From NCBI GenBank assembly GCA_963662795.1, contig OY759746.1, forward strand, positions 1,600,001 to 1,664,000: 64,000 nucleotides of DNA, read 5' to 3'. The notes beneath the pieces are model-generated. The model was not told the DNA's origin and did no database searches. It saw nothing but the letters and a program-made list of their open reading frames with translations. Numbering within the stretch: the stretch's first letter is position 1; each line of letters starts with the position of its first letter. The stretch is from Spirochaetia bacterium (lineage in GTDB: Bacteria; Spirochaetota; Spirochaetia; CADAEX01). Positions 25,527-45,895 of this stretch are shown one piece after another. Both the position numbers and the translations under genes were made by a program.

Positions 25527-25542
25527 ACATAAGGAAAAAAAT

Positions 25543-26436: not shown

Positions 26437-26524
26437 TGATCAGGCCCTTTAAAGCCGGATAGAAACGCTGCCCCTCAATCGGGGCGGCATCCTGCCTTAG
26501 GCGGGACAATAAAAAGGAGAATAT

Positions 26525-27547
26525 ATGGCAGATAAAATAAGAGTTGGAATAATCGGAGCCGGCAGGATAGGAAAAGTTCATGCTGAAAGCATAGCGTATC
26601 ACATCCCCGAGGCGGAAGTTGTAACAGTTTCTGATCCGTTTGTAAACGCGGATATCGAGAAATTCATGAAAAATCTCGGTGTTAAAAAAGTTACAAATGA
26701 TTACAAAGAGATTATAAATGACAAGGATATTGATGTTGTCCTTATCTGCTCGCCTACAAACACTCACTCCCGGTACAGTATTGAAGCGGCCAACGCAGGA
26801 AAACATATCTTCTGTGAAAAGCCGATAGATATGGATGTTGATAAAATAAAGGAAACAATAAAAGCCGTAGAAAAAGCAGGTGTAAAATTTCAGGTTGGTT
26901 TTAACAGAAGGTTTGACCATAATTTCCTGAAAGTAAAAGGCCTTGTGAAGGAAGGCAAGGTCGGTGATATCCATGTTGTAAGAATTACATCAAGGGACCC
27001 GGCAGCGCCTCCGGCCGAGTATGTAAAAGGCTCGGGTGGTATGTTTATGGATATGACTATTCATGATTTTGATATGGCAAGGTATCTTTCAGGCAGCGAA
27101 GTAGAGGAAGTTTTCGCATACGGTACTGTTTTAGTCGATCCGGCAATCGGTGCGGCAGGAGATATTGATACAGCTGTTGTAACCCTTAAATTCGCAAACG
27201 GGGCGCTTGGAATAATTGAAAACTCAAGACAGGCTATATACGGCTATGACCAGCGGGTTGAGGTTTTCGGAAACAAGGGAGCTGTCGAGGTATCCAATGA
27301 TAAACAGTCATCTGCTGTTTTAAGCACAAAGGAAGGGGTAGCAAGCGAAAAGCCGCTTTATTTCTTTCTCGAAAGATATATGGAATCATTTACTGAGGAA
27401 AAGAGACAGTTTTTTGCAGCTATAAAAAACAATACAGCTCCTCCTGTAGGAGCGTTGGACGGTCTTAAACCCGTGCTTATAGCCAAGGCGGCGCTTAAAT
27501 CTGTTAAGGAAGGCCGGCCTGTCAAAATATCAGAAATAGACAAATAA
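26525..27547 (+). CDS. iolG: Inositol 2-dehydrogenase
   Basis: GAGRIG, CEKP, GFNRRFD, SRDP, DMTIHDFD, YGYDQR. Confidence 0.95.
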   Translation: MADKIRVGIIGAGRIGKVHAESIAYHIPEAEVVTVSDPFVNADIEKFMKNLGVKKVTNDYKEIINDKDIDVVLICSPTNTHSRYSIEAANAGKHIFCEKPIDMDVDKIKETIKAVEKAGVKFQVGFNRRFDHNFLKVKGLVKEGKVGDIHVVRITSRDPAAPPAEYVKGSGGMFMDMTIHDFDMARYLSGSEVEEVFAYGTVLVDPAIGAAGDIDTAVVTLKFANGALGIIENSRQAIYGYDQRVEVFGNKGAVEVSNDKQSSAVLSTKEGVASEKPLYFFLERYMESFTEEKRQFFAAIKNNTAPPVGALDGLKPVLIAKAALKSVKEGRPVKISEIDK

Positions 27548-27566
27548 AAATACAGGGAGGAAAATA

Positions 27567-28946
27567 ATGGAAGCGAAAGAAATGGTAGCTGCCCTGATAA
27601 AAAGGGCAAGGGCGGCGCAGAAGATAGCGGACGGATACAGCCAGGAAAAGGTTGATGAACTTGTAAAGGCGATATCATGGGCTATAATAAAGAAGGAAAA
27701 CTCGGAAAAAATAGCGCGCCTTGCGGTGGATGAATCGCAGCTCGGACACTATGAAGGAAAATACGGAAAGCTGCAGAAGAAAATCCGCGGTGTAGTTCGT
27801 GATGTGGCCGGAGTAAAATCTGTAGGTATAATTGAGCGTGATGAGAAAAAAGGACTCCTTAAAATAGCAAAACCTGTTGGAGTAATAGGGGCGCTTGTCC
27901 CCTGCACAAATCCTGAGGCGACCCCTGTAATCAAGGCGATAAACTCGATCAAGGGAAGAAACGCAATCATCTTCGCGCCGCACCCGAGGACAAAGAAAAC
28001 CAATACCCTTATAGTAAACATTATGAGGGACGCGCTTAAAAGACACGGAGCGCCGGAAGACCTTATAATCGGAATAGAAGAGCCTTCGATGGACGCAAGC
28101 GGAGAGCTTATGGCCCAGTGCGACCTTGTTGTTGCAACAGGCGGGGCAGGGATGGTAAAAGCTGCATATTCATCAGGAACTCCTGCATACGGAGTAGGTG
28201 CCGGAAATGTTGTAGTTGTAGTTGATGAGACAGCGGACTTTAAAGACAGCGCAAAGAAGATAATGCTGAGCAAGACATTTGATCTTGCAACCAGCTGCAG
28301 CGCGGACAATAATATCGTTCTTGTCGATGAGGTTTATGAAAAAATGCTTGATGAGCTTAAGGCAGTGGGCGGGTACATGTGCTCATCCGATGAGAAGGCA
28401 AAGCTTCAGAAGGTAGTCTTTCCAGATAATCATCTCGGACGGGACCATGTCGCACAGAGTGCACAGAAGATAGCATCCCTTGCGGGGTTTAAAATACCTG
28501 AAGGTGTAACCTTCATCCTTGTTGAGGAAGACGGTGTAGGGGCAAGCCATCCGTTCAGCGGAGAGAAGATGAGCGTAATCGCAGCTGTTCATAAAGTAGC
28601 TGATTTTAAGGCCGCGATTGATAAGGTAAACGAGATAACATCCTATCAGGGCGCGGGGCACTCCTGCGGTCTTTACTCAAATGATATGAAGCGGATAGAA
28701 GAATTCGGCGTTAAAACAAAGACGAGCCGTGTAATGATCAGGCAGCCTCAGGTGTTCGGAAACAGCGGAAACTGGGACAACGGTCTTCCATTTACTCTTA
28801 CCCTCGGATGCGGAACATGGGGAGGCAACATCTCAAGCGAGAACATCACCTGGAAGCATTTTATCAATATAACATGGCTTTCGATGCCTATCCCTGAGGT
28901 AATCCCGAAAGATGAGGACCTCTTTGGCGATATCATGAAGGAATAA
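27567..28946 (+). CDS. CoA-acylating aldehyde dehydrogenase (SauS/AdhE-ALDH-like), copy 1
   Basis: PVGVIGALVPCTNP, ATGGAGMVKAAYSSG, SKTFD..TSCSADN, EKMS, LTLGCGTWGGN. Confidence 0.9.
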   Translation: MEAKEMVAALIKRARAAQKIADGYSQEKVDELVKAISWAIIKKENSEKIARLAVDESQLGHYEGKYGKLQKKIRGVVRDVAGVKSVGIIERDEKKGLLKIAKPVGVIGALVPCTNPEATPVIKAINSIKGRNAIIFAPHPRTKKTNTLIVNIMRDALKRHGAPEDLIIGIEEPSMDASGELMAQCDLVVATGGAGMVKAAYSSGTPAYGVGAGNVVVVVDETADFKDSAKKIMLSKTFDLATSCSADNNIVLVDEVYEKMLDELKAVGGYMCSSDEKAKLQKVVFPDNHLGRDHVAQSAQKIASLAGFKIPEGVTFILVEEDGVGASHPFSGEKMSVIAAVHKVADFKAAIDKVNEITSYQGAGHSCGLYSNDMKRIEEFGVKTKTSRVMIRQPQVFGNSGNWDNGLPFTLTLGCGTWGGNISSENITWKHFINITWLSMPIPEVIPKDEDLFGDIMKE

Positions 28947-28973
28947 TCTTTTTAAAAAAATAATGGGAAATCA

Positions 28974-29006
28974 AGGCTGCCTCTTCCTCGGGGGCAGCTT
29001 TTTTTT
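28974..29006 (+). terminator. Rho-independent terminator of the iol operon
   Basis: GGCTGCCTC/GGGGCAGCT stem followed by T8. Confidence 0.85.
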
Positions 29007-29167: not shown

Positions 29168-30121
29168 ATGATATATAGAAAACTTGGAAATTCGGAGTTG
29201 AATGTATCTGCCGTCGGTCTTGGAACATGGGCTCTGGGCGGTGATTTTTGGGGACAGGTTGATGACCGGAATTCTATTTCAGCAATACAGGCTGGAATAG
29301 ATTCAGGAATTAACCTGATTGATACAGCTCCTGCCTATGGACAGGACCAGCATGCGGAAAAAATTGTTGGCAAAGCCATTAAGGGCAGACGTGAAAAGGT
29401 AATAATTGCCACTAAAGTAGGAACAATCCGCCATCCCGATAGTTTTGAGAGAAATTTAAAACCGGATAATATTATTGCACAGCTTGAAGAATCTCTTGAA
29501 AATCTGGGTGTCGATGTAATTGATCTGTATCAGATTCACTGGCCTGATGCTAAGACGCCACTTGAAGAAAGCTTGAAAACACTGGCAAAAGCTCAAAAAG
29601 ATGGAAAGTTTAAATATTTTGGTGTAGCAAATTTTAATATTGAACAATTGAATCAAGCCCGTGACATTATTGATGTTGTAAGTCTTCAGCCCCCTTTTTC
29701 CCTGTTAAAGAGAAATATTGAAAGTGATATTCTTCCATACTGCCGTAAAAAAAATCTTGGGGTACTGGGTTATGGTGCACTTGCCGGAGGTATTTTAACC
29801 GGAAAATTCCGGGATATGCCTGTTTTTAAGGAAGATGATAAAAGGAGTGATTTTTATCCTTATTACAAGGAACCGCTCTGGGGAAATATTCAGAAACTTC
29901 TGGATGTACTGCGTAAAATTGCTGGTTTGCGAAGTGTTCCTGTTGCGCAGGTTTCAATTAATTGGGCAATACATCAGTCTGGTATAACCAGTTCACTGGT
30001 TGGGGCAAAAACTACCGAGCAGGCCGTATTAAATGCAGGAGCAGCTGACTTTAATTTATCTGAATCGGAATTAGAGGAGATTGATAATGCCTATAATAAA
30101 TTTCTTAAAAAACTGTTGTAG
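29168..30121 (+). CDS. Aldo/keto reductase (IolS/AKR11-like)
   Basis: GLGTW, IDTAPAYG, IATK, IDLYQIHWPD. Confidence 0.92.
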   Translation: MIYRKLGNSELNVSAVGLGTWALGGDFWGQVDDRNSISAIQAGIDSGINLIDTAPAYGQDQHAEKIVGKAIKGRREKVIIATKVGTIRHPDSFERNLKPDNIIAQLEESLENLGVDVIDLYQIHWPDAKTPLEESLKTLAKAQKDGKFKYFGVANFNIEQLNQARDIIDVVSLQPPFSLLKRNIESDILPYCRKKNLGVLGYGALAGGILTGKFRDMPVFKEDDKRSDFYPYYKEPLWGNIQKLLDVLRKIAGLRSVPVAQVSINWAIHQSGITSSLVGAKTTEQAVLNAGAADFNLSESELEEIDNAYNKFLKKLL

Positions 30122-30152
30122 ATTTTTAATGGTTGTAAAAAACATGTAAATA

Positions 30153-30214
30153 TCAATATAGGATAATATAGAGTCAAAATAAAATACGACAGATGATTTT
30201 ATTGGTGAGAAAAT
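30153..30214 (+). promoter_or_regulatory. AraC-type tandem site and promoter 2
   Basis: TCAA at 30153 and 30174; TCAAAATAAAATACGACAG matches site 1 at 18/19; TGnGAAAAT. Confidence 0.65.
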
Positions 30215-30236
30215 TAATAAACTAAAGGGGAATCAC

Positions 30237-30749
30237 ATGGCAAAAAAAATATTGGCTATAGTCTCAAATGATTATGAAGAACTTGAATTATGGTATCCGG
30301 TATTGAGACTGAGAGAAGCCGGATATGTTGTAGATATTGCCGGAGAGAAAAATAAAGAGTCTTATCTGGGAAAACACGGTTTGCCAATACTTAGTACGGT
30401 CAGTTTTGATGAAGTAAATGTGAATGATTATGCAGGTCTGATAATTCCAGGCGGTTGGGCTCCTGATAAACTGAGAAGGTATGAAAAAGTAATCGAAATT
30501 GTACAAATCATGAATCAGCAAAATAAGGTTATTGGGGCAATATGTCATGCTGCCTGGGTTCTTGTTACGGCTGGTATTCTTTCGGGGAGAAAAATGACAA
30601 GTGTTGAATGCATATCCCCTGAATTGAAATATGCCGGAGCTGAGTGGATAAATAAAAGTTGTGTTATAGATGGAAATCTTGTAACCAGCAGAACCCCTCC
30701 TGATTTACCTGATTATATGATTGGATATTTAAATGTACTTGAAAGATAG
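30237..30749 (+). CDS. DJ-1/PfpI family protein (glyoxalase III/deglycase-like)
   Basis: YEELE, IPGGWAPDKLR, AICHA, DGNLVTSRTPPDL. Confidence 0.92.
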   Translation: MAKKILAIVSNDYEELELWYPVLRLREAGYVVDIAGEKNKESYLGKHGLPILSTVSFDEVNVNDYAGLIIPGGWAPDKLRRYEKVIEIVQIMNQQNKVIGAICHAAWVLVTAGILSGRKMTSVECISPELKYAGAEWINKSCVIDGNLVTSRTPPDLPDYMIGYLNVLER

Positions 30750-30788
30750 GCTGAAAAATACAAAAAAATTAAGGAGAACTGTAAAAAT

Positions 30789-31661
30789 ATGGAAATGATT
30801 TTTCAGGTAATAATAAACGGTTTACTTATCGGCGGGTTTTATGCCCTCGTAGGTATCGGGTTGAATGTAATTTTCGGAGTCATGAAAGTTGTAAATTTCA
30901 GTCAGGGTGAATTCTTGATGCTGGGAATGTATGTAACATATGTTTTAAATAAGGTTTTTGGGTTGGATCCATATTTGACATTACCTATTTCTGCCGCCTT
31001 GCTTTTTATGTTAGGCGCGATTGTTCAGAATTATCTTATGACTCCTATAATGAGACAGTCTGGTGATTCAAATCAAATATTCCTGACAGTATCAATTATG
31101 TTCTTATTACAAAATGCATCAATGATGATTTTTTCTGCAGATTACCTGGCTGTAAATACAGATTATGGTATGAAAGGTATTAAGCTTTTTGGTTCCTTAA
31201 TGACTTATCCTAAAGTCATAAGTTTTATTTTTGTACTTATTATAACAATTGCCTTATTTTATTTTTTAAATAAAACTGATACAGGTAAAGCGCTAAGAGC
31301 TACCTCGCAGAACAGTTATGGGGCAAATCTGATCGGTATCAATATAAAAAGAATGTATGTACTTGCTTTCGGACTGGGGACAGGACTTGCAGGTATTGCC
31401 GGTTCGTTGCTTGTCCCTTTTTATTATGTTTTTCCTCATATCGGAGATACATTTACTCCCAGGGCCTTTGTTGTAGTGGTTCTGGGCGGTCTTGGTAATA
31501 TTCCAGGTGCGCTTATTGGAGGTTTAATTTTAGGTCTTTTGGAAACTGCGGGTGGTTTTGTTCTGGGGCCGGCTTTAAAAGAAACTTTTGTATTTATTAT
31601 TTTTATTCTGATTCTTGTAACAAGAGGGCAGATTGAAACAAAAAAGAGGGGATTGGTTTAA
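30789..31661 (+). CDS. Liv-type ABC transporter permease (LivH-like)
   Basis: NGLLIGGFYAL.GIGL..IFGVM.VVNF, GKALRA, VVLGGLG. Confidence 0.92.
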   Translation: MEMIFQVIINGLLIGGFYALVGIGLNVIFGVMKVVNFSQGEFLMLGMYVTYVLNKVFGLDPYLTLPISAALLFMLGAIVQNYLMTPIMRQSGDSNQIFLTVSIMFLLQNASMMIFSADYLAVNTDYGMKGIKLFGSLMTYPKVISFIFVLIITIALFYFLNKTDTGKALRATSQNSYGANLIGINIKRMYVLAFGLGTGLAGIAGSLLVPFYYVFPHIGDTFTPRAFVVVVLGGLGNIPGALIGGLILGLLETAGGFVLGPALKETFVFIIFILILVTRGQIETKKRGLV

Positions 31662-31662
31662 T

Positions 31663-32670
31663 ATGGAAATTTTAAAAACTGATGTAAATCTTAAAAAGGC
31701 CAATTATATCATACTATCAATAATAACGTTACTGGTTTTTATGCTCCCGGTTATTGTTAAAGAGCCTTATCTGCTTCATGTTTTTATCATGCTGTTCTGG
31801 ACAACTGCCTGCAGTCTTGCATGGAATATTATTGGAGGATTTGCCGGACAGTTTTCTCTGGGACATGCTGTTTTTATGGGTTTCGGGGCATACGCTACCG
31901 CGTTCGTACAGACTAAATTGGCTCTTCCTCCCCTTGTCGGATTGGTTATCGGGGTTATATTTGTAGTTGTTGTTTCTGTCATTCTCTTCTATCCATGTTT
32001 TTGTCTTAGGGGGCCATATTTCACAATGGCGACACTTGGAATGACATTAGCTATCAGAAATGCATTTTTAAACTGGGAGATGATTGGTAAAGCAGAAGGA
32101 CTGCTTCTCCCGTTTCGAAGTTCAAATTCCTGGTTCTGGTTCCAGTTTACCGATAAAAAACCTTACTATTTTACTGCTTTGCTGCTGGTTATTTCTTTTA
32201 TTATACTAAGTCTTAAAATATCAAGGTCACGATTCGGTTATGCTCTTAAAGCCATAAAAGAAAATGAAAATACAGCTTCGGCAGTAGGCATTGACAAGAC
32301 CAAGTACAAGTTATACGCCATGGTAACAAGTACTGTTATGATAAGTATATGCGGTAGTTTTTATGCAAACTATATCCGCTTTGTCGATCCAGATGTTATG
32401 GTAATCCCCAGATCAATTGAAATTGTTCTGCCTGTAATAATGGGTGGAATCGGAACAGTTATAGGACCTGTTATAGGCGCGATTATTTTTACTCCGTTAG
32501 CGGAAATATTAAGAACGACTCTTGGCGGTTTTATGGCAGGAGCTCATTATGTAGTTATTGCTGTCATTATGATTTTGATTATAGAATTTAAACCAGACGG
32601 TCTTCATCATTGGTTTATGACACATTATGTTCAGTTGTTGAAAGCAATAACTGGCAGAAAAGAAAAATAA
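31663..32670 (+). CDS. Liv-type ABC transporter permease (LivM-like)
   Basis: WNIIGGFAGQFSLGH, LRGPYF, SRFGYALKAIKENE. Confidence 0.92.
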   Translation: MEILKTDVNLKKANYIILSIITLLVFMLPVIVKEPYLLHVFIMLFWTTACSLAWNIIGGFAGQFSLGHAVFMGFGAYATAFVQTKLALPPLVGLVIGVIFVVVVSVILFYPCFCLRGPYFTMATLGMTLAIRNAFLNWEMIGKAEGLLLPFRSSNSWFWFQFTDKKPYYFTALLLVISFIILSLKISRSRFGYALKAIKENENTASAVGIDKTKYKLYAMVTSTVMISICGSFYANYIRFVDPDVMVIPRSIEIVLPVIMGGIGTVIGPVIGAIIFTPLAEILRTTLGGFMAGAHYVVIAVIMILIIEFKPDGLHHWFMTHYVQLLKAITGRKEK

Positions 32671-32685
32671 TTTTTTGGAGAAATT

Positions 32686-33411
32686 ATGAATTTGTTAAAA
32701 ATACAAGGTGTTTCAAAAGATTTTAAAGGTCTGCACGCTGTTGTAAATGTAAGCTTCAATGTCAATGAAGGAGAAATCGTTGGACTTATTGGTCCCAATG
32801 GTGCCGGGAAAACTACATTATTTAATCTGGTAAGTAGATTTTTACCTGTTAGTTCCGGACGGATTTTTTTTGAAAATACTGAGATAACGAAGAAAAATCC
32901 TGCGACAATAAGCAATATGGGAATTGCAAGAACTTTTCAGATTGTTCAACCTCTTCTGGAGCTGACAGTTCTTGAAAATGTAATGATTGGAGCAATGTTC
33001 GGAAGAAGCAATATCATACACAGAAAAACTGCAGAAAAAAAAGCTGAGGAGATAATAGAATTTACAGGTCTTTCCAGACAAAAAAACGAGCTGGCAAAGG
33101 TTCTCGGAACACCTGGAAGAAAAAGACTGGAGCTGTCAAGAGCTTTGGCTGCTGACCCCAAAATAATGCTGCTGGATGAAGTAATGGCAGGCCTGACTCC
33201 AACAGAAGTAGAAGAGTGTATGGAGTTGATACAGATGATTAATAAAAGAGGTATTACAATCCTGATGGTTGAACATGTTATGAGGGCGGTTATGAATATC
33301 TCACACAGGATTGTTGTACTAAATTACGGAAAAATGATTGCTGAAGGAATACCGGAAGAAATCAGTACAAACAAGGAAGTTATTGAAGTTTATCTCGGAA
33401 AGGATGAGTAA
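32686..33411 (+). CDS. Liv-type ABC ATPase (LivG-like)
   Basis: GPNGAGKTT, ARTFQ, LLDE, VEH. Confidence 0.93.
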   Translation: MNLLKIQGVSKDFKGLHAVVNVSFNVNEGEIVGLIGPNGAGKTTLFNLVSRFLPVSSGRIFFENTEITKKNPATISNMGIARTFQIVQPLLELTVLENVMIGAMFGRSNIIHRKTAEKKAEEIIEFTGLSRQKNELAKVLGTPGRKRLELSRALAADPKIMLLDEVMAGLTPTEVEECMELIQMINKRGITILMVEHVMRAVMNISHRIVVLNYGKMIAEGIPEEISTNKEVIEVYLGKDE

Positions 33412-33412
33412 T

Positions 33413-34120
33413 ATGCTTGATGTTAAAAAATTAAATGTAGCATATGGTGATGTGCAGGTATTGTGGGATATTGATTTTGAAATTAAACAGGGCGAATTAG
33501 TTGCCTTGATAGGTTCAAACGGAGCCGGGAAAACAACAGTTTTAAAAACTATTTCCGGAATTCTCAAGCCAATTAGCGGGGAAATTATTTTTGAAGGACA
33601 GAATCTTGAAAATACCGGTTGTCCAACAGTTACCAGGGCAGGCTTGACACAGGTTCCTGAAGGACGACAAATATTTTATGACATGACTGTTTTGGAAAAC
33701 CTTGAGTTGGGCGGTTATGTTATGAAGGATAAGGAAAATAGAATTGAAAATATTGAAAAAATGCTGAAAATGTTTCCTCGTTTGAATGAAAGAAAGAAAC
33801 AGTTGGCAGGAACACTGAGCGGCGGTGAGCAGCAGATGCTTGCAATTGCCAGGAGTCTTATTCCTAATCCTAAACTGGTTATGCTTGACGAACCATCACT
33901 GGGCCTTGCCCCAAATCTTGTAAGTATGATCTTCGATACAATTAAAATATTAAGAGATGAAATAGGTCTTACCGTATTAATTGTCGAACAGGATGTTAAG
34001 AAAGCATTATCCATAGCTGAAAGAGGTTATGTATTTGAAAACGGTAAAATAGTACATAAAGGCAGTACTGAATCTTTAATTAATGATCCAGACATAAAAA
34101 AAATGTATTTGGGTCTTTAA
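33413..34120 (+). CDS. Liv-type ABC ATPase (LivF-like)
   Basis: GSNGAGKTT, VPEGR, LSGGEQQ, LDEPSLGLAP; alternative start at 33404. Confidence 0.93.
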   Translation: MLDVKKLNVAYGDVQVLWDIDFEIKQGELVALIGSNGAGKTTVLKTISGILKPISGEIIFEGQNLENTGCPTVTRAGLTQVPEGRQIFYDMTVLENLELGGYVMKDKENRIENIEKMLKMFPRLNERKKQLAGTLSGGEQQMLAIARSLIPNPKLVMLDEPSLGLAPNLVSMIFDTIKILRDEIGLTVLIVEQDVKKALSIAERGYVFENGKIVHKGSTESLINDPDIKKMYLGL

Positions 34121-34145
34121 TTTAAATAATTAATGGAGGTTATTT

Positions 34146-35399
34146 ATGAAAAGAATTTTGATTATTCTTTTAGTGCTCTGTGTGAGCGCAGGTGCTTTTG
34201 CAGGTGGCACAAAAGAAGCCGCCGGTGAAAAAGCCGGAGCCGATGTTGTAAAAATAGGTGCTATCTATCCGCTTACAGGCGGAGTTGCACCAATTGGTTT
34301 AAACATCAAGAAAGGTCTGGATTTCGCTGTTGAGGAAATTAATGGAAGTGGCGGAATTATGGGAAAACAGGTTAAAATCATTTATGGTGATTCAACCGGT
34401 GATCCGAAAGTAGGTATGGCTGAAGCAGAGAGACTGATTACACGGGAAGATGTATCAATAATAATTGGTTCTTATCAGAGTTCAGTATCAAATGTAGTTT
34501 CTGAGGTAGCACAGAGATATGAAACACCTAATATTACTGCTATTTCAACAGCTGATGTCATTACAACAAGAGGATATGATTATTTTTTTAGAATGGCTCC
34601 TACAAATATGCTCTTCCTGCGGGACATGATTCAGTATTGTGCAGATGTAAACGATAAATACAAGCTGGGTTATAAAACTGTGGGAATTATTACCGGTAAC
34701 GACCTTCTTGGACAGGAAAGCAGAAAATGGGCAAAATACTGGAGCGAAAAACTTGGCTTGAATGTAATCAGCGAAGTACAGTACACAATTAATGCTGTTG
34801 ATCTTTCTTCTGAAGTTCTTACTGTCAAGAAAGCAAATCCAGATATACTTGTTATTGATCCATATATTTCTGATGCTATACTGATTACCAAAACACTTCA
34901 TGAACAGGGCTTTACACCAAAAATTGTCATTGGAAAAGCAACCGGTCTAATTGATCCAAGTTATATTCCAACAGTTGGGGCTCTTGCAAACGGTGTTACT
35001 ACAGCAACCGAATGGAATGTTGATATTGTGAAAGCAGAAGCTGTGAATGCAAAATTCAACAAGAAATATGGAATTAATATGAATGGGCACTCTGCTGAAG
35101 TTTATACAGCTATGTATATAGTAAAAGAAGCTATTGAGAAAGCAAAGAGCACGGATAGAAAAGCTATAAAAACTGCTCTTGAAGATCTTGAAATAAATGA
35201 AAAATTTTCAAATGGTCAAAAAATAATATTACCTTATGATAAGATTAAATTTGATGACTATGAAAACGCAGCAGGAAAAAATACCAATCAGAATAAATAT
35301 GTCAAGTTAACTGTTGTTCAGATTCAGGATGGTAAATATATAACGGTATGGCCTTTTGAAGCTGCAGCTAAAGAACCAATTGTTCCCTTGAAATGGTAA
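34146..35399 (+). CDS. Liv-type ABC substrate-binding protein
   Basis: Signal peptide; KIGAIYPLTG, EINGSGGI.G, IGSYQSSV, YFFR. Confidence 0.9.
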   Translation: MKRILIILLVLCVSAGAFAGGTKEAAGEKAGADVVKIGAIYPLTGGVAPIGLNIKKGLDFAVEEINGSGGIMGKQVKIIYGDSTGDPKVGMAEAERLITREDVSIIIGSYQSSVSNVVSEVAQRYETPNITAISTADVITTRGYDYFFRMAPTNMLFLRDMIQYCADVNDKYKLGYKTVGIITGNDLLGQESRKWAKYWSEKLGLNVISEVQYTINAVDLSSEVLTVKKANPDILVIDPYISDAILITKTLHEQGFTPKIVIGKATGLIDPSYIPTVGALANGVTTATEWNVDIVKAEAVNAKFNKKYGINMNGHSAEVYTAMYIVKEAIEKAKSTDRKAIKTALEDLEINEKFSNGQKIILPYDKIKFDDYENAAGKNTNQNKYVKLTVVQIQDGKYITVWPFEAAAKEPIVPLKW

Positions 35400-35418
35400 T
35401 TTGATTTTCATGTAAGTC

Positions 35419-35457
35419 ATGACCTTCCGGATATAATCCTGAAGGTCATTATTTTTT
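35419..35457. terminator. Hairpin between the convergent SBP and araC genes
   Basis: ATGACCTTC-C-GGAT / ATCC-T-GAAGGTCAT followed by a T-rich tract. Confidence 0.7.
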
Positions 35458-35466
35458 AAATAATAT

Positions 35467-36312
35467 TCAGTCAAGAATGTTTTTATAATTTTCCCTGTAT
35501 TGAAAGGGCGTGACCATATAGTATTTTTTAAATATTTTATAAAAATGACTTGTACTGTTAAAACCGCAGTCAAAAATTATATCTAAAACTTCAGTTGTAG
35601 TAAAAGCAAGTTTATAAGCAGCCCATGACATTCTTGCCTGTGTTACAACTTCAGTTATGGTTTTACCTGTTCTTTTTTTTAATTCTCTTTCTACATGCTC
35701 AGGCGATTTGTTACAAAGAGACACAAAACCCGGAACCCCTTTTGTGAAAAATTGAGGTTCCTGAATTCTTTTAATGGCATAGTTTAACCATTCTATTGCA
35801 CTGCCTGATTCTGATCCTGAAGCTGATTTAGCTATTACGCTGATCAGGTTGAGCAGGAATCTTTCAAGTTCAAATATTGATTTATCATTACTTGATAAAA
35901 GTCTGTTGAAATTAGTTTCAACCCAGCATTGCTGGAATAAATTCAGTTTAATTATGTCAGGATATTCAGGCTTGCTGTCAAAAAAAAATAATGAGTTATC
36001 GTGATACCTGGTTCTTATATGATTCATGGAATCAATCGGAAAAAAAATATGAAGCAATGAAAAACCTTCGTCATATTCCGGAAAACTATGTATATCAATA
36101 TTTGGTCTGATAAAAAGTAAATCGCCTTTTTTAATTGTCATTTTTTTGTTATTGATCAAGTGTGTTCCTGAGCTGTTTTCTGCATAAAGTATTTCAGCAT
36201 AATCATGTTCATGCGGCGGCAGAAAAGGTTTTATCTCTTTTCTAAGTTGATCAACTTTGTAATATCCAATCAGTGAAGAAGTAATTTCATTAGTCCAATA
36301 TAGTTTGAACAT
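35467..36312 (-). CDS. AraC family regulator with N-terminal cupin domain
   Basis: HEHDYAE...H cupin; SPEHVER, CGFNSTSHFYKIFKK...TPFQYR. Confidence 0.92.
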   Translation of the reverse strand: MFKLYWTNEITSSLIGYYKVDQLRKEIKPFLPPHEHDYAEILYAENSSGTHLINNKKMTIKKGDLLFIRPNIDIHSFPEYDEGFSLLHIFFPIDSMNHIRTRYHDNSLFFFDSKPEYPDIIKLNLFQQCWVETNFNRLLSSNDKSIFELERFLLNLISVIAKSASGSESGSAIEWLNYAIKRIQEPQFFTKGVPGFVSLCNKSPEHVERELKKRTGKTITEVVTQARMSWAAYKLAFTTTEVLDIIFDCGFNSTSHFYKIFKKYYMVTPFQYRENYKNILD

Positions 36313-36375
36313 ATATGATATTTAATATTTATCTAGTGTTAAGTCAACTAAATACGTATATATATTTTAATAATC

Positions 36376-36437
36376 TCAATAAAGGATAATAAATAGTCAA
36401 TTAAAAATAAGATAAAAAAATAAGCCGGTTGTATATT
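36376..36437 (+). promoter_or_regulatory. AraC-type tandem site and promoter 3 (transketolase operon)
   Basis: TCAATAAAGGATAATA at 36376 and a second TCAA at 36397; TATATT 35 nt after the second half-site, the same spacing as sites 1 and 2. Confidence 0.6.
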
Positions 36438-36467
36438 TAATTAACTTAAATATACAAAGGAATACTT

Positions 36468-37301
36468 ATGCTAAAAGAAGATTTAGGTAAATTAATCAAG
36501 ATAGCTCAGGAAATAAGATTGCTGATATTAAAAACAACTCATACTGCCGGGTGCGGTCATACCGGCGGGTCATTATCTGAAGCTGATATCCTTACTGCAT
36601 TATATTTTAATATTATGAACATCGATCCTGCAAATCCGGGAAAAACTGATCGTGACAGATTTATTCTTTCCAAGGGACATGCGACACCCGGATTTTATTC
36701 TACTCTTGCAAGGAGAGGTTTTTTCCCCGTTGAGGTTCTTTCAACTTTTGATAAAGAAGAAAGTATTCTGCAGGGTCATCCTGATATGAATAAAACCCCA
36801 GGTGTTGATATGACAACCGGGTCGCTTGGGCAGGGGCTTTCCTGCGGAGTCGGGATGGCTATCGGCGGTGAAGACAGGAATAATAAATTTTATACATATG
36901 TACTTCTTGGTGACGGTGAATGCCAGGAAGGTCAGGTTTGGGAAACTGCGCTTTTCGCAGGCAGCAGAAAAGTAAAAAGAATAATAGCAATTACTGATTA
37001 TAATAAAGTTCAGCTTGCATCAACTGTTGATGAGACCTCATCTCTGGAACCTCTGGAAGATAAATGGAAAGCATTTGGATGGACTGTACTGAGATGTGAC
37101 GGACATGCTATGGAGAAACTGGTAGAGACATTAAACAGGGCAAAAAAGTTAAGTGAAACAGGACCGGTTGCGATTATTGCAGATACAGTCAAGGGTAAAG
37201 GCGTTTCCTTTATGCAGAATAAATGGCAATGGCACGGTAAGGCTCCGAACAAAGATGAATATGAACAGGCAGTTAACGAAGTATCTGGAGGTATAAAATA
37301 A
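36468..37301 (+). CDS. Split transketolase 1, N-terminal (ThDP-binding) subunit
   Basis: GHTGGSLS, DRFILSKGHA, LQGHP, GSLGQG, GDGE..EG, KGKG, WHG. Confidence 0.93.
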   Translation: MLKEDLGKLIKIAQEIRLLILKTTHTAGCGHTGGSLSEADILTALYFNIMNIDPANPGKTDRDRFILSKGHATPGFYSTLARRGFFPVEVLSTFDKEESILQGHPDMNKTPGVDMTTGSLGQGLSCGVGMAIGGEDRNNKFYTYVLLGDGECQEGQVWETALFAGSRKVKRIIAITDYNKVQLASTVDETSSLEPLEDKWKAFGWTVLRCDGHAMEKLVETLNRAKKLSETGPVAIIADTVKGKGVSFMQNKWQWHGKAPNKDEYEQAVNEVSGGIK

Positions 37302-38242
37302 TGAAAATCGGAGAAGAGATTGCAGGCAGAGTAGCTTTTGGAAAAGCATTGGAAACGCTTGGAGAAAAATATCCGGATTTGGTTGTACTGGATTCCGATG
37401 TATGTGCATCAACGCAGACAAAATATTTTAAGGATAAATACCCGGAGAGATTTTATCAGATTGGAATAGCAGAAGCGACAATGATAGGTGTTTCTGCAGG
37501 ACTTGCAACAACAGGATTTATCCCTTTTGTCTCAGCGTTTGCGATATTTCTGGCGAAGAGAGCCGTTGATCAGATAAGGGTATCAATTGCCTATGCTGAT
37601 TTGAATGTAAAATTAAACGGAGGATATGGCGGACTCCCAACCGGACAGGCCGGGGCTACCCATTCATCGCTTGAAGATATTGCGATAATGAGAGCAATGC
37701 CTAATATGAAAGTATTTGTTCCCGCTGATCCAATGGAAACAGCCAAGGCAACAGAACTTTTAATTCAGACAAAGGGCCCCGCATACCTGCGGACTGTAAG
37801 GTGTCCGGTTCCTGTTATTTTTGACGATAATCACAAGCCCGAGTTTGGAAAGGCAACCGTTATTAATGAAGGAAAAGATATCGTAATAATTTCAACCGGC
37901 ATGATGACGCCAAAAGCGTTATTTGCTTCCGAAAAACTTAAAAAAAGCGGTATACATGCAAGAGTCATTCACATGGGAAGTATAAAACCGATTGACAGGG
38001 CTGCTGTTGTTAAAGCTGCCAAAGAGATAGGGACAATTATAACAATTGAGAACCACAGTATTTATGGCGGCCTCGGCAGCGCTATCGCAGAGATTGTCGG
38101 TGAGGAATATCCATGCAAGGTGAAAAGACTTGGTTTCAGGGATATATTCCCCGAATCAGGTAATGATGAATATCTATTCAGTAAATACGGGATGAATGTT
38201 GAAAACATTGAAGCTGCGGCTAAAAAAGAATTAGGTGTATAA
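37301..38242 (+). CDS. Split transketolase 1, C-terminal subunit
   Basis: GIAEA, RAVDQIR, GATH..LED, ENH...GGLG. Confidence 0.93.
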   Translation: MKIGEEIAGRVAFGKALETLGEKYPDLVVLDSDVCASTQTKYFKDKYPERFYQIGIAEATMIGVSAGLATTGFIPFVSAFAIFLAKRAVDQIRVSIAYADLNVKLNGGYGGLPTGQAGATHSSLEDIAIMRAMPNMKVFVPADPMETAKATELLIQTKGPAYLRTVRCPVPVIFDDNHKPEFGKATVINEGKDIVIISTGMMTPKALFASEKLKKSGIHARVIHMGSIKPIDRAAVVKAAKEIGTIITIENHSIYGGLGSAIAEIVGEEYPCKVKRLGFRDIFPESGNDEYLFSKYGMNVENIEAAAKKELGV

Positions 38243-38243
38243 A

Positions 38244-39260
38244 ATGAAAGCGGTAGTCTGGGAAAATAAGGATGTAATAAACTTAAGTGAAGTTCCGGTT
38301 CCTGTCCCCGGGAAAGATGAAGCTTTAATAAAGGTCATAATGACCGGTATATGCGGATCTGATCTTACGATAATTTCCGGTAAACATCCAAGGGCTAAAA
38401 CTCCAACTGTTATTGGCCATGAATTTATCGGTATAGTTGAAGAAATAAATGGAAAATCAGATTCATTTAGTGTCGGCGACAGGGTTGCTGTCGAACCGCT
38501 GCTTTCATGTGGGCATTGCAAACATTGTCTGAACGGAAACGCCCATGTCTGCGGAACACTAAGGCTTCTGGGCATTGAAGCACCGGGTGCTTTCGCCGGG
38601 TATGCAACAGCACCGTTGAAAAAAATATTTAAGCTTCCTTCCAATATTTCTGATATTTCTGCTGTACTTTTAGAGCCGTTATCTGTAGCAGTGCATACTC
38701 TGAATTACAGCATGCTTCAGAAAGGAGAAGATGTCTCTGTAATTGGCGCCGGCCCCATTGGTTTATTGTGTGCTGAAGTCGCAAGAGCAAAGGGCGCAGG
38801 AAAAATATTTGTTTCTGAGGTTAATGCAGATAGAATTTTGATGGCTCAGAAAATGGGTTTTACAACAATAGATTCAAAAAAAACAGATCCGGTTGATTAT
38901 ATTCTGAAAGATACGAATGGAAAGGGTTCTGAAGTTACAATTGATGCTGCAGGTTCAAAACATACAGGAATGTTATTGATACCGATGACATCAATCAAGG
39001 GAAGAATAATGATGGCAGCCCTTCACAAGGAACCATGTGAAATTAATTTTCAGCAGTTGTCATACAGAGAACAAAAAATAATTGGCATAAGGATATATGC
39101 CGAAGGAGATTTTTCTGAATCTATTAAACTGCTTGAGAATAAAAAAATAAAAATAGAATCACTTGTAACAGGAATTTTCAGCATGGATGAATATCATCTG
39201 GCATTTGATAAAGCTAAAAATGATTCGGCAAGCTGCAAGATTGTAATTCGGCAGGATTAA
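38244..39260 (+). CDS. Zn-dependent polyol/sugar-acid dehydrogenase (MDR)
   Basis: GICGSD, GHE, CGHCKHC...C, EP, GAGPIG. Confidence 0.9.
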   Translation: MKAVVWENKDVINLSEVPVPVPGKDEALIKVIMTGICGSDLTIISGKHPRAKTPTVIGHEFIGIVEEINGKSDSFSVGDRVAVEPLLSCGHCKHCLNGNAHVCGTLRLLGIEAPGAFAGYATAPLKKIFKLPSNISDISAVLLEPLSVAVHTLNYSMLQKGEDVSVIGAGPIGLLCAEVARAKGAGKIFVSEVNADRILMAQKMGFTTIDSKKTDPVDYILKDTNGKGSEVTIDAAGSKHTGMLLIPMTSIKGRIMMAALHKEPCEINFQQLSYREQKIIGIRIYAEGDFSESIKLLENKKIKIESLVTGIFSMDEYHLAFDKAKNDSASCKIVIRQD

Positions 39261-39277
39261 AAATAATTATACAGCAG

Positions 39278-40126
39278 GTGAAATTTGTGAACAATGAATT
39301 ATCTGATTTATTAACTGAAAAAGCATTGAAAATACGACAAAACATCCTGAAAATGGTGGGCATTAAAAAAGCCGGACACCTGGGAGGGGCTGCCTCAATT
39401 GCGGAAATAGTCTCTGCGCTGTATTTTTACAAACTGGGTATTTCGATAAATAATTTTCAGCAATTGGACCGCAACAGGTTTATCATAAGCAAGGGTCATG
39501 CTGTTCTGACTCAATATGCGGCCCTTGCTGAACTTGGATTTTTCCCTGTTGAAGAACTGGGAAAAACAAAGACGCTGAGTGGTCTGTTGCAGGGCCATCC
39601 TGACTTGTCAATTCCGGGGATCGAGGCGGTTACTGGATCGCTTGGGCAGGGACTTTCAATTGCGCTGGGAATGGCATTGTCCATGCGGTTGGATAATATT
39701 GCTAAAAGAGTTTACGTAATTTTGGGTGACGGGGAACTGGCAGAAGGGCAGATTTGGGAAGCAGCCATGGCTGCTAATAATTTTAAAGTTAACAATATTA
39801 CGGCAATTATTGATTATAATAAAATCCAGTCTACAGGAAGAACAGAAGAAGTTTTCAACATACCTTATTTGCGGGATAAGTGGAGTTCCTTTGGATGGAA
39901 TGTTATTGAAATCAATGGACATGATATTAACGGTATTGTCACGGCATTTGATGAAAGTGAGAAAGCAGTTGAAAAACCAACCGTGATTATTGCTGATACT
40001 ATTAAAGGGAAAGGCTTTTCTTTCGCAGAGGACAGTGCCGCATATCATAACACAGAACTATCAGATGATTTGTTTAAAAAGGCATTTGATGAACTTGAAA
40101 TCCGTGCAGGGGAATTAAAGTCATGA
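39278..40126 (+). CDS. Split transketolase 2, N-terminal subunit
   Basis: GHLGG, RFIISKGHA, LQGHP, GSLGQG, GDGELAEG, KGKG; GTG start. Confidence 0.93.
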   Translation: MKFVNNELSDLLTEKALKIRQNILKMVGIKKAGHLGGAASIAEIVSALYFYKLGISINNFQQLDRNRFIISKGHAVLTQYAALAELGFFPVEELGKTKTLSGLLQGHPDLSIPGIEAVTGSLGQGLSIALGMALSMRLDNIAKRVYVILGDGELAEGQIWEAAMAANNFKVNNITAIIDYNKIQSTGRTEEVFNIPYLRDKWSSFGWNVIEINGHDINGIVTAFDESEKAVEKPTVIIADTIKGKGFSFAEDSAAYHNTELSDDLFKKAFDELEIRAGELKS

Positions 40127-41064
40127 GAGAAAACAAAAGTCTGAGAGAAGCCTACGGAAAAACTTTATTAAAACTCGGCAGTGATAATAAAAATATTGTA
40201 GTCCTTGAAGCTGATCTTGGAAAATCAACAAAGTCGAATATCTTCGGCGATAATTTCCCGGAACGTTATTTTCAGATGGGTATTTCGGAACAGAATATGG
40301 CCTCAACAGCTGCCGGTTTTGCATTATCAGGGAAGATACCTTATATACATTCATTTGCGGTGTTTGTTTCCGGAAGAACCTATGATCAGATCCGTAATTC
40401 GATTTGTGTGCCTGATTTAAAAGTGAGAATTTGCGGCTCTTCAAGCGGCTTGTCAGATTATGCTGATGGTAAAACCCATCAGGCACTTGAAGATGTAGCA
40501 ATAATGAGAGCCCTTCCCGCTATGAAGGTGTATTGTCCACTCGACTATCATGAAACTGAAATGATAGTTAAAAAAACCGCAGATATAGAAGGGCCGGTAT
40601 ATCTGAGAATCAATCGAAATGAACTACCTGTTTATTTTAATGGCAGTGAGAATTATGAACTGGGAAAGATTTCGAAAATCAGGGATGGAAATGATATAGT
40701 TGTCTTTGCAAATGGAATAATGGTTTCGCAGGCTGACTTGGCTGCCGGGTTACTTGAGTCTAAAGGACTTTCCGTGAAAATTATTAACGTTAGCAGCATT
40801 AAGCCTATCGATAAAGAAGGAATCATCCGTGAATCCAAAGGGATGAGGGCGGTCTTCGTTGCGGAAGAGCACAATGTTATCGGCGGTCTTGGCAGCGCAG
40901 TAGCAGAAGTCCTGGTGGGATCTTATTCCGGAAATTTTGAAATCATCGGTGTTAATGATGAGTATGGCAGATCTGCAGAAAATTATAATATTCTATTAAA
41001 ACATTATAAGCTGGATTCCATTAGCATTGTTGAAAGAGTAGAAAAAATATTTGGAGGAAAATAA
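40123..41064 (+). CDS. Split transketolase 2, C-terminal subunit
   Basis: LREAYG, EADLGKST, GISEQ, YDQIR, DGKTHQ, EEH...GGLG; the stop overlaps the ALDH start. Confidence 0.93.
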   Translation: MRENKSLREAYGKTLLKLGSDNKNIVVLEADLGKSTKSNIFGDNFPERYFQMGISEQNMASTAAGFALSGKIPYIHSFAVFVSGRTYDQIRNSICVPDLKVRICGSSSGLSDYADGKTHQALEDVAIMRALPAMKVYCPLDYHETEMIVKKTADIEGPVYLRINRNELPVYFNGSENYELGKISKIRDGNDIVVFANGIMVSQADLAAGLLESKGLSVKIINVSSIKPIDKEGIIRESKGMRAVFVAEEHNVIGGLGSAVAEVLVGSYSGNFEIIGVNDEYGRSAENYNILLKHYKLDSISIVERVEKIFGGK

Positions 41065-42443
41065 TGGAAGCGAAAGAAATGGTAGCTGCCCTGATAAAAA
41101 GAGGGAGGGCAGCTCAGAAGATAGCGGACGGATACAGCCAGGAAAAGGTTGATGAACTTGTAAAGGCGATATCATGGGCTATAGTAAAGAAGGAAAACTC
41201 GGAAAAAATAGCGCGCCTTGCGGTGGATGAATCGCAGCTCGGACACTATGAAGGAAAATACGGAAAGCTCCAGAAGAAAATCCGCGGTGTAGTTCGTGAT
41301 GTGGCCGGAGTAAAATCTGTAGGTATAATTGAGCGTGATGAGAAAAAAGGACTCCTTAAAATAGCAAAACCTGTTGGAGTAATAGGGGCGCTTGTCCCCT
41401 GCACAAATCCTGAGGCGACCCCTGTAATCAAGGCGATAAACTCGATCAAGGGAAGAAACGCAATCATCTTCGCGCCGCACCCGAGGACAAAGAAAACCAA
41501 TACCCTTATAGTAAACATTATGAGGGACGCGCTTAAAAGACACGGAGCGCCTGAAGACCTTATAATCGGAATAGAAGAGCCTTCGATGGACGCAAGCGGA
41601 GAGCTTATGGCCCAGTGCGACCTTGTTGTTGCAACAGGCGGGGCAGGGATGGTAAAAGCTGCATATTCTTCCGGTACTCCTGCATACGGAGTAGGTGCCG
41701 GAAACGTTGTAGTTGTAGTTGATGAGACAGCAGACTTTAAAGACAGCGCAAAGAAGATAATGCTGAGCAAGACATTTGATCTTGCAACCAGCTGCAGCGC
41801 GGACAATAATATCGTTCTTGTCGATGAGGTTTATGAAAAAATGCTTGATGAGCTTAAGGCAGTGGGCGGGTACATGTGCTCATCCGATGAGAAGGCAAAG
41901 CTTCAGAAGGTAGTCTTTCCAGATAATCATCTCGGACGAGACCATGTCGCACAGAGTGCACAGAAGATAGCATCCCTTGCGGGGTTTAAAATACCTGAAG
42001 GTGTAACCTTCATCCTTGTTGAGGAAGACGGTGTAGGGGCAAGCCATCCGTTCAGCAGAGAGAAGATGAGCGTAATCGCAGCTGTTCATAAAGTAGCTGA
42101 TTTTAAAGCCGCGATTGATAAGGTAAACGAGATAACATCCTATCAGGGCGCGGGGCACTCCTGTGGACTTTACTCAACTGATATGAAGCGGATAGAAGAG
42201 TACGGTCTTAAAACAAAGACAAGCCGCGTAATGATAAGGCAGCCGCAGGTGTTCGGGAACAGCGGAAACTGGGACAACGGTCTTCCATTTACTCTTACCC
42301 TCGGATGCGGGACATGGGGAGGCAACATCTCAAGCGAGAACATCACCTGGAAGCATTTTATCAACATAACATGGCTTTCGATGCCTATCCCTGAGGTAAT
42401 ACCCAGAGATGAGGACCTCTTCGGCGATATCATGAAGGAATAA
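41064..42443 (+). CDS. CoA-acylating aldehyde dehydrogenase, copy 2
   Basis: 452/459 aa identical to copy 1 by comparing the two translations. Confidence 0.9.
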   Translation: MEAKEMVAALIKRGRAAQKIADGYSQEKVDELVKAISWAIVKKENSEKIARLAVDESQLGHYEGKYGKLQKKIRGVVRDVAGVKSVGIIERDEKKGLLKIAKPVGVIGALVPCTNPEATPVIKAINSIKGRNAIIFAPHPRTKKTNTLIVNIMRDALKRHGAPEDLIIGIEEPSMDASGELMAQCDLVVATGGAGMVKAAYSSGTPAYGVGAGNVVVVVDETADFKDSAKKIMLSKTFDLATSCSADNNIVLVDEVYEKMLDELKAVGGYMCSSDEKAKLQKVVFPDNHLGRDHVAQSAQKIASLAGFKIPEGVTFILVEEDGVGASHPFSREKMSVIAAVHKVADFKAAIDKVNEITSYQGAGHSCGLYSTDMKRIEEYGLKTKTSRVMIRQPQVFGNSGNWDNGLPFTLTLGCGTWGGNISSENITWKHFINITWLSMPIPEVIPRDEDLFGDIMKE

Positions 42444-45513: not shown

Positions 45514-45525
45514 AGGGAAAAAATT

Positions 45526-45885: not shown

Positions 45886-45895
45886 GTAGGCTAAA

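Follow-up and report, generated by a model that had tools for sequence, protein, structure and literature searches.

The island at positions 29168-42443 of the stretch analysed here (the window: 64,000 nucleotides, positions 1,600,001 to 1,664,000 of contig OY759746.1, assembly GCA_963662795.1, from a Spirochaetia bacterium) encodes two different split transketolases (TK1 and TK2), an aldo-keto reductase (AKR), a zinc-dependent dehydrogenase (ZnDH), a CoA-acylating aldehyde dehydrogenase (ALDH) and an ABC importer. Our favoured reading, held at a little under even confidence, is that the island is an accessory, kinase-free catabolic module based on transketolase (TK) chemistry, whose substrate is unphosphorylated and most likely a carboxylated sugar acid or deoxysugar acid. 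We adopt it because the same design recurs around the TK2 class and the ZnDH family: a ketol-making dehydrogenase, a specialised TK and a third enzyme that acts on the aldehyde by oxidation or reduction, in the absence of a kinase. A fuller version of this proposal is possible and more doubtful. In it the two TKs, which belong to different active-site classes, would act on carboxylated sugar acids, such as a pentonate together with its 2-deoxy counterpart, or a longer deoxy acid taken twice, with tartronate semialdehyde as the product of one TK and malonate semialdehyde as that of the other; the C2 units would enter the pentose-phosphate pool, the aldehyde-acids would yield acyl-CoA and ATP, and the RSSDHR and RSYAHR clades described below would be two new, widespread families of sugar-acid TK. 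An earlier interpretation made from the DNA letters (the sequence-only reading) had already suggested a kinase-free pathway with specialised TKs, and that general idea is supported; the link that it drew to the known catabolic TKs SqwGH and AptAB is not.

Active-site classes of the two transketolases

E. coli tktA served as the reference for mapping residues onto TK1 (thiamine diphosphate (ThDP)-binding N subunit, 36468-37301, plus strand, PF00456 171 bits; C subunit, 37301-38242, plus strand, PF02779 and PF02780) and TK2 (N subunit, 39278-40126, plus strand, PF00456 148 bits; C subunit, 40123-41064, plus strand). The two enzymes are 44% identical in their N subunits and 38% in their C subunits. 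Both keep the catalytic residues His26, His66, His100, Asp155, Asn185 and His261, together with Glu411, Phe434, Phe437 and His473, and both keep Arg358, Ser385 and Arg520. The phosphate-binding His461 is replaced in each, by Tyr in TK1 (H461Y) and by Ser in TK2 (H461S), and the 2-hydroxyl-binding Asp469 is Ala in TK1 (D469A) and is retained in TK2. The sequence-only reading had judged the TKs to be specialised and mutually distinct, which the loss of His461 from both and of Asp469 from TK1 supports; the motifs that it quoted are real (LDSDVCAST and GQAGATHS in the TK1 C subunit, LEADLGKST and ADGKTHQ in that of TK2).

Read as a six-letter signature at positions 358/385/461/469/473/520, canonical TK is RSHDHR, TK1 is RSYAHR and TK2 is RSSDHR. 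RSYAHR is present in 112 of the 120 closest homologues of the TK1 C subunit (58-70% identical), the other eight differing at 469 only, and all 11 TK2-like loci that were fetched have RSSDHR. The split TKs of candidate-phyla bacteria carry RSHDHR; RSYDHR, RAHDHR, RAANHR, RADNHR and RGCLHS make up further classes. In a quick maximum-likelihood tree of 55 C-subunit rows with SH-aLRT support, the TK2 class forms a single branch (support 100) and TK1 falls in a 16-row clade (support 97), with a second RSYAHR group (L010, L011, L069) placed apart from it. All NCBIfam TK models score below cut-off for both enzymes. The genome encodes a canonical full-length TK at position 1174017 (807 bits, cut-off 682) as well as four split TKs of the accessory type; since the canonical enzyme is encoded elsewhere, TK1 and TK2 are not the housekeeping transketolase. 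The split TK at genome positions 778000-797999 (L087) has the divergent signature RGCLHS and adjoins an RpiB gene, TRAP transporter genes and an octopine-dehydrogenase-like gene.

In E. coli TK, His461 is described as a phosphate-binding residue, the replacements H461S and R520V improve use of the non-phosphorylated aldehydes glycolaldehyde and propionaldehyde, and D469A/T does so for propionaldehyde, which lacks a 2-hydroxyl (PMC3657141). The triple variant R358I/H461S/R520Q of TktA cleaves 5-keto-D-gluconate to tartaric semialdehyde (PMC12016104). By analogy, TK2 would suit a non-phosphorylated donor whose aldehyde product retains its 2-hydroxyl, and TK1 would suit one whose product has none. 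The D469A change of TK1 is consistent with a product of the type X-CH2-CHO, since D469A/T favours propionaldehyde in the E. coli enzyme.

Genomic contexts of related transketolases and dehydrogenases

A search of 400 other genomes of the class with the TK2 C subunit gave matches at E<=1e-85 in 34. Three TK2-class cassettes were annotated, one of them in this genome. They comprise a GntR regulator, a TRAP or TTT transporter, a short-chain dehydrogenase/reductase (SDR), the TK and a 3-hydroxyisobutyrate dehydrogenase (HIBADH)-like gene, with a kinase in none of the three. The HIBADH-like gene of the cassette in this genome scores above the cut-offs of both tartronate-semialdehyde reductase models (474 bits, cut-off 397; 399 bits, cut-off 341). 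A distant ZnDH (30-32% identical) lies upstream in 5 of 11 TK2-like loci. These contexts point to cleavage of a keto-aldonate to tartronate semialdehyde. The cassette of this genome, in which the TK2-class split TK is accompanied by GntR, SDR, TRAP and tartronate-semialdehyde reductase genes, is found at genome positions 525000-544999 (L086).

ZnDH (38235-39260, plus strand, PF08240 and PF00107) has E. coli RspB as its nearest solved relative (4ilk, 177 bits). The enzyme is rare. Matches at E<=1e-80 occur in 4 of the 400 genomes, and three of the four adjoin fused TK-like genes (~700 aa), the fourth adjoining an IolD-like enzyme. One of the three TK-adjoining loci (L076) also has RbsD/FucU, an aldehyde:ferredoxin oxidoreductase and a sugar-type ABC system. 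Only one database protein exceeds 56% identity to ZnDH over its full length, a homologue designated P0121 is 72% identical, and a metagenome scan returned relatives of at most 36% identity. The exact arrangement of the island was not found among the 400 class genomes searched. The sequence-only reading had AKR and ZnDH stand in for an isomerase. A precedent exists in an E. coli apiose cluster, in which an oxidoreductase pair is proposed in place of the isomerase (PMC13001218); the RspB relationship and the three in four ZnDH relatives beside TK-like genes also favour its interpretation.

For the TK1 C subunit the nearest genomic relatives are in three loci of spirochaete metagenome-assembled genomes (MAGs), with 61-66% identity, and in each the gene is followed by a PF02502 isomerase of the SqwI family. 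All three loci lie close to GFO/MocA oxidoreductases, and two have IolD-like ThDP enzymes (134-154 bits, below the IolD cut-off). A scan of a genome collection with the same subunit gave mainly generic split TKs of candidate-phyla bacteria and only five loci above 60% identity.

Organisation of the island

Gene calls were made from the open reading frame (ORF) list and two family scans (Pfam, and NCBIfam with its curated cut-offs). They recover the gene content given by the sequence-only reading, namely AKR, PfpI, a Liv-type ABC system, split TK1, ZnDH, split TK2 and ALDH. Its statement that kinase, isomerase and glycosidase are missing also agrees with the Pfam scan, which gave zero matches to families of these kinds among the ORFs of 29168-42443.

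The TK1, ZnDH, TK2 and ALDH genes are contiguous and tightly packed. Overlaps occur at TK1N/TK1C, TK1C/ZnDH, TK2N/TK2C and TK2C/ALDH, and the gap between ZnDH and TK2N is 17 nt. To this extent the operon that had been claimed exists; the island as a whole is not one operon, because an AraC-family regulator gene (35467-36312, minus strand; PF12833, PF00165, PF02311), divergent from the TK operon, splits off the AKR, PfpI and importer genes. These form a separate transcription unit that runs in the same direction as the TK operon.

The separate unit begins with the AKR gene (AKR11-like, 29168-30121, plus strand, PF00248 248 bits). The top NCBIfam model for its product is YdjG at 174 bits, below the cut-off of 550, and among solved structures it is closest to 3n2t, 1pz1 and B. 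subtilis IolS (1pyf, 165 bits). A DJ-1/PfpI family protein follows (30237-30749, plus strand; PF01965 160 bits; TIGR01382 163 bits, above the cut-off of 139), which on the sequence-only reading might detoxify reactive aldehydes. The importer consists of two LivH/LivM-type permeases and two LivG/LivF-type ATPases (30789-34120, plus strand; PF02653 twice, PF00005 twice) and a Peripla_BP_6 substrate-binding protein (34146-35399, plus strand, PF13458 197 bits). The nearest solved structure to the binding protein is 8wch (204 bits), which is SAR11_0655 with L-pyroglutamate bound. The five-gene transporter cassette recurs with 55-73% identity in one genome (G095), the contig of which stops at the binding protein, and with 41-51% identity in four others.

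Aldehyde dehydrogenase copies and the insertion

The ALDH gene of the island (ALDH2, 41064-42443, plus strand) is a copy of ALDH1 (27567-28946), the last gene of an iol operon. The genes directly upstream of the island are, in order, those for a LacI regulator, an IolB/KduI-family protein, IolD, IolE, IolG and ALDH1. The iolB-like, iolD, iolE and iolG genes (22691-27547, plus strand) are described as context, and we claim no functional membership in the island for them. IolD (931 bits, cut-off 715), IolE (424, cut-off 290) and IolG (484, cut-off 355) pass their NCBIfam models; the IolB-like gene scores 96 against a cut-off of 205. An isomerase-family gene, that of the IolB/KduI family, does lie near the island, 5.7 kb upstream of its start, because the iolB-D-E-G-ALDH1 operon adjoins the island on that side. 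Between ALDH1 and the AKR gene stands a terminator-like hairpin (28973-29001), the stem of which is 12 bp long and which ends in a T-run.

The two ALDH proteins are identical at 452 of 459 positions (98%), with seven differences. The repeat, the first copy of which spans 27546-28949 on the plus strand, consists of the ribosome-binding site, the ORF and the stop codon only; identity in 50-nt windows is 0.84-1.0 inside it and 0.2-0.4 outside. The direct repeats are 13,497 bp apart, exactly the span of the island, which they enclose. The gene occurs a third time in the genome, at position 2254728 (L098:10729-12108). The three copies (genome positions 1627567, 1641064 and 2254728) are 98-100% identical and each closes a different catabolic cluster. 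The third is preceded by genes for a TTT transporter, an SDR, a ThDP enzyme and another SDR, and lies 0.55 kb before an mmdA-like Na+-decarboxylase cluster, the mmdA-like acyl-CoA decarboxylase of which scores 773 bits against a cut-off of 999. ALDH is native to this lineage, with orthologues of 96% and 90% identity in two genomes of the same genus (G001, G002) and, in a sister genus, of 75-77% in three genomes. The gene comes directly after iolG in every one of these five relatives, in the position usually occupied by IolA. The TK operon was assembled by copying the host ALDH gene with its ribosome-binding site behind foreign genes.

In both same-genus genomes ALDH runs straight into YdcZ, followed by a 402-aa protein and a binding protein, and these three correspond to 60337-63339 in the window. 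For this reason 28947-60336 (31.4 kb, island included) is an insertion in this strain relative to both. Neither of the two genomes has a TK1- or TK2-class gene. The island itself is real and recurs in close relatives, since contigs from four runs of two other studies carry its pieces (AKR, importer, AraC, TK1, ZnDH, TK2 and ALDH) with 89-99.8% identity, and single contigs span the AKR-PfpI-LivH junction and the AraC-TK1N junction. The sequence-only reading, accurate on what the island contains, had overlooked the iol operon upstream, the ALDH duplication and the 31.4 kb insertion.

The top NCBIfam model for ALDH is the acylating sulfoacetaldehyde dehydrogenase SauS/SqwD (NF047625), at 552 and 558 bits for the two copies, below the cut-off of 600. 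The nearest solved structure to ALDH2 is SucD, an acylating succinate-semialdehyde dehydrogenase (8cei, 330 bits). Judged by these matches, the enzyme appears to group with acylating dehydrogenases of aldehydes that have an anionic end. The suggestion that the substrate carries an anionic terminus draws support from this grouping and from the TK2-class relatives, which have carboxylate-type transporters and no kinase.

An ADP-forming acyl-CoA ligase (19295-21367, minus strand; PF13549, PF13607, PF13380) may be a partner of the ALDH copies for ATP formation. Its top NCBIfam model is an acetate--CoA ligase of the ADP-forming type (410 bits, below the cut-off of 1200). The ligase and a 318-aa protein, both on the minus strand, face the LacI-iolB-like-iolD-iolE-iolG-ALDH genes, and this arrangement (18366-28946) is kept in both same-genus genomes with 89-98% identity; the iol-ALDH part is also kept in the three sister-genus genomes with 61-80% identity. 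An Atlas search with the 318-aa protein matched only unnamed spirochaete clusters. IolC matches stay below the cut-off in this genome, the best at 104 bits against 300, and neither same-genus genome has one above it. No IolJ was identified in this genome, though no IolJ-specific model was applied; of the two class II aldolase matches in the genome, neither lies beside a kinase match.

Proposed mechanism

We propose that the Liv-type ABC system imports the substrate, that AKR reduces its aldehyde end and that the RspB-like ZnDH then oxidises the next-to-last alcohol carbon, which would give the HOCH2-CO-CHOH- ketol needed as TK donor. Each of the two TKs would transfer a C2 unit from its donor to an acceptor, which is presumably glyceraldehyde 3-phosphate, with xylulose 5-phosphate as the product. 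TK2, with Asp469 kept and H461S, would release a 2-hydroxy aldehyde-acid of the tartronate-semialdehyde type, and TK1, with D469A and H461Y, an aldehyde lacking the 2-hydroxyl, of the malonate-semialdehyde or X-CH2-CHO type. The acylating ALDH would convert the aldehyde to an acyl-CoA, from which ATP could be gained through the ADP-forming CoA ligase encoded 8 kb upstream. We infer the substrates, the acceptor and the manner in which the two TKs share the work. The sequence-only reading had the TKs act in succession, each removing one C2 unit, a claim that no longer has priority: parallel handling of two related acids, one hydroxylated and one deoxy, with the dehydrogenase common to both, fits equally well. 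If the steps are sequential, the residue classes suggest that TK2 would act before TK1, with AKR and ZnDH between them, in the reverse of gene order.

Accessory split TKs form several conserved clades, each marked by particular substitutions at the residues that recognise the tail of the substrate, and RSSDHR genes are tied to acid transporters and tartronate-semialdehyde reductase. If the proposal is correct, new enzyme specificities would be defined, the use of sugar acids by anaerobes with no ATP spent on a kinase would be explained, and TK2 and TK1 would be natural counterparts of the engineered H461S and D469A variants of E. coli TK.

Several observations weigh against the proposal. FGGY kinases lie within 8 kb in two of the three TK1-class spirochaete MAG loci, so the TK1 class is not always kinase-free. 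The island encodes no tartronate-semialdehyde reductase, and its importer is of the Liv type as opposed to the TRAP and TTT transporters of TK2-class cassettes, its nearest solved relative binding L-pyroglutamate. The importer homologues with 41-51% identity have no consistent catabolic neighbours. A sequential route that ends in malonate semialdehyde requires an unusual C7 acid. The entire residue argument is carried over from E. coli TK, and Arg358, Ser385 and Arg520 tell nothing of the donor, since they may have been kept just to bind a phosphorylated acceptor. The tree of C subunits is a quick version, and the substrate is a putative one.

Comparison with known systems

To our knowledge, which here comes from reviews, SqwGH and AptAB are the only catabolic TK systems outside the pentose-phosphate pathway to have been studied biochemically. 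Carter et al. (2018) are said to have described the D-apiose route, in which the AptAB transketolase works with an apulose kinase.

The sulfoglycolytic TK (sulfo-TK) pathway comprises the SqwGH TK, the SqwI isomerase and either SqwF or SqwD with SqwKL (Liu et al. 2021; reviewed in PMC9594981 and PMC11659671). The TKs that act on sulfofructose (SF) have RAFDR where canonical TKs have RSFHR (PMC11659671). At the corresponding positions (R358/S385/F434/461/520) TK1 reads RSFYR and TK2 RSFSR, so that, on a comparison of motifs only, neither has the SqwH pattern. One locus considered as an SqwH reference (L063) matches the published motif; its neighbours include no sulfoquinovose genes, and it was not used. 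AptB from the apiose cluster of E. coli SE15 (locus tag given in PMC13001218) shares 30-31% identity with the C subunit of either TK and has the signature ATNLHG. Because the SqwH motif is not present and the signature and identity of AptB differ, TK1 and TK2 lie outside both known families of catabolic TK (for SqwH by motif only).

The island resembles the sulfo-TK pathway in having split TKs, a donor proposed to be non-phosphorylated and no kinase, and its C2 removals, with an aldose-ketose conversion between them, and its recovery of ATP by an acylating dehydrogenase and an ADP-forming ligase are proposed here on the same lines. It differs in that two distinct TKs are present, whereas the sulfo-TK pathway uses one TK twice, and in that AKR and ZnDH stand where the PF02502 isomerase would be; no SqwI-type isomerase of this family (RpiB/LacAB) was found in 29168-42443. 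Sulfoquinovosidase, sulfoquinovose isomerase and exporter are also absent from the island, and the importer is of the Liv type. With the D-apiose route it shares a catabolic split TK outside the pentose-phosphate pathway, and its AKR and ZnDH parallel the oxidoreductase pair proposed in E. coli (PMC13001218). However, that route needs an FGGY apulose kinase, expected beside AptAB, and there is no kinase in the island.

Closer likenesses exist to the TK2-class cassettes defined in this analysis, the TKs of which are 52-57% identical to TK2 and share its RSSDHR signature and clade; these too are kinase-free and have a dehydrogenase adjoining the TK. The island departs from them in its Liv-type ABC importer, in having an acylating ALDH instead of a reductase and in a second TK of another class. 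As for the canonical myo-inositol pathway (IolG, IolE, IolD, IolB, IolC, IolJ and IolA), the island adjoins iolB-D-E-G and ALDH2 copies the gene at the IolA position, but no IolC was found and the island is missing from relatives with the same iol operon. A literature search that covered few subscription journals found no paper on a TK-dependent route for inositol or sugar acids.

A cluster in a Victivallaceae MAG (L033, 1507-11846) encodes a GFO/MocA protein, a class II aldolase, a SauS-like ALDH (522 bits), the beta and alpha subunits of a CoA-ligase, an anion permease, a split TK with the signature RAANHR and two RpiB/LacAB proteins. It looks like an oxidative variant of the sulfo-TK pathway.

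Alternative explanations

The island could be an isomerase-free variant of the sulfo-TK pathway, in which AKR and ZnDH turn sulfoquinovose into sulfofructose by a polyol route. After cleavage of the sulfofructose by one TK, the redox pair would re-isomerise what is left, the second TK would release sulfoacetaldehyde, and ALDH and the ligase would give sulfoacetate and ATP. A C6 sugar, two C2 removals and an X-CH2-CHO end product agree with what has been published (PMC9594981, PMC11659671). The best ALDH model is that of the acylating sulfoacetaldehyde dehydrogenase (552-558 bits), an ADP-forming ligase is encoded nearby, and the TK1 clade falls in a weakly supported group (87) with a putative sulfo-TK clade that includes L033. 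We nevertheless consider this variant unlikely. The TKs read RSFYR and RSFSR in place of RAFDR (motif comparison only), ALDH scores below the SauS cut-off of 600 and is the lineage's own iol-operon enzyme, GH31, the sulfoquinovosidase family, has zero matches across the 98%-complete genome, the island has neither PF02502 isomerase nor exporter, and the binding protein is of the Liv type. The position of the island directly 3' of iolB-D-E-G-ALDH1 raises a different prospect, a TK branch of myo-inositol catabolism. Here the upstream Iol enzymes would form 2-deoxy-5-keto-D-gluconate, a TK would replace the IolC kinase and the IolJ aldolase by splitting this acid into a C2 unit and 3-hydroxy-4-oxobutanoate, and ALDH with the ligase would yield a C4 diacid and ATP. 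The lack of an above-cut-off IolC (best 104 against 300 bits in this genome, and none in the two same-genus genomes) would be accounted for; on chemical reasoning the keto acid is built as a TK donor should be, with a ketol end and in the D-threo configuration; B. subtilis IolS is a relative of AKR; and IolD-like ThDP enzymes stand beside TK1-class and ZnDH relatives in L007, L009 and L074. Yet G001 and G002 have the iol-ALDH operon followed by YdcZ, with neither the island nor any TK1- or TK2-class gene, a strong terminator-like hairpin follows ALDH1, and the regulators are separate (LacI for the one, AraC for the other). Recombination at the ALDH repeat can account for the adjacency, and only one TK cleavage is chemically possible on the C6 acid, which leaves the second TK and the redox pair with no role. 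We regard this branch as improbable. A two-step sequential route on 2-deoxy-5-keto-gluconate was rejected on chemical grounds, because after one cleavage and isomerisation the carbon adjoining the carbonyl has no hydroxyl.

A kinase-free breakdown of a neutral sugar, deoxy sugar or polyol is rather less probable still. It would run from a 6-deoxyhexose to acetaldehyde, from deoxyribose to 3-hydroxypropanal, or from a hexose or tetritol to glycolaldehyde, with ALDH as a general acylating dehydrogenase. AKR and ZnDH, the latter resembling sorbitol dehydrogenase, make up the classic aldose-polyol-ketose route, a 2-deoxy aldehyde product would suit D469A, the ligase scores best as an ADP-forming acetate--CoA ligase, and one ZnDH relative (L076) is accompanied by a sugar-type ABC system, RbsD/FucU, aldehyde:ferredoxin oxidoreductase and a TK-like gene. 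These points are offset by the nearest characterised relatives of ALDH, which use aldehydes with an anionic end, by the TK2-class relatives with their carboxylate-type transporters and tartronate-semialdehyde reductase, and by an importer that is not of the sugar type. That there is no dedicated pathway at all, the TKs being redundant pentose-phosphate paralogues and their neighbours a chance mosaic of insertions, seems to us very improbable. The island does belong to an insertion of 31.4 kb specific to this strain, its ALDH gene was recently copied from the host, and the search of 400 class genomes did not turn up the exact arrangement; against this, a canonical TK is encoded elsewhere in the genome, the class-specific active-site changes are kept in more than 100 homologues, the operon genes overlap, the association of ZnDH with TK recurs, and contigs from other studies carry the island with its junctions bridged.

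Other features of the window

Within the insertion, 48251-60217 holds a further, uncharacterised catabolic cluster, which encodes two Zn-dehydrogenases, a UPF0261 protein, a DHDPS-family protein, a creatininase-family protein, an SDR, a second Liv-type ABC system and a GntR regulator. Between this region and the island (42798-47788) lie two GlpO-like FAD oxidoreductases, paralogues with BFD [2Fe-2S] domains, on either side of a pyridine-nucleotide-disulfide oxidoreductase and a DUF1667 protein, with a cupin after them; the GlpO-like paralogues share a 72-nt stretch that is 74% identical. Further upstream, 11760-18186 holds genes for an MFS transporter, an enolase-family protein, a DUF4147/MOFRL (glycerate-kinase-like) protein, a weak match to the LarA N-terminal domain and a GntR regulator. 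A type I restriction-modification system (HsdR, HsdM, HsdS) occupies 3416-10355, with a Schlafen/AlbA_2 protein that has a Fic-like C-terminal domain encoded between hsdM and hsdS.

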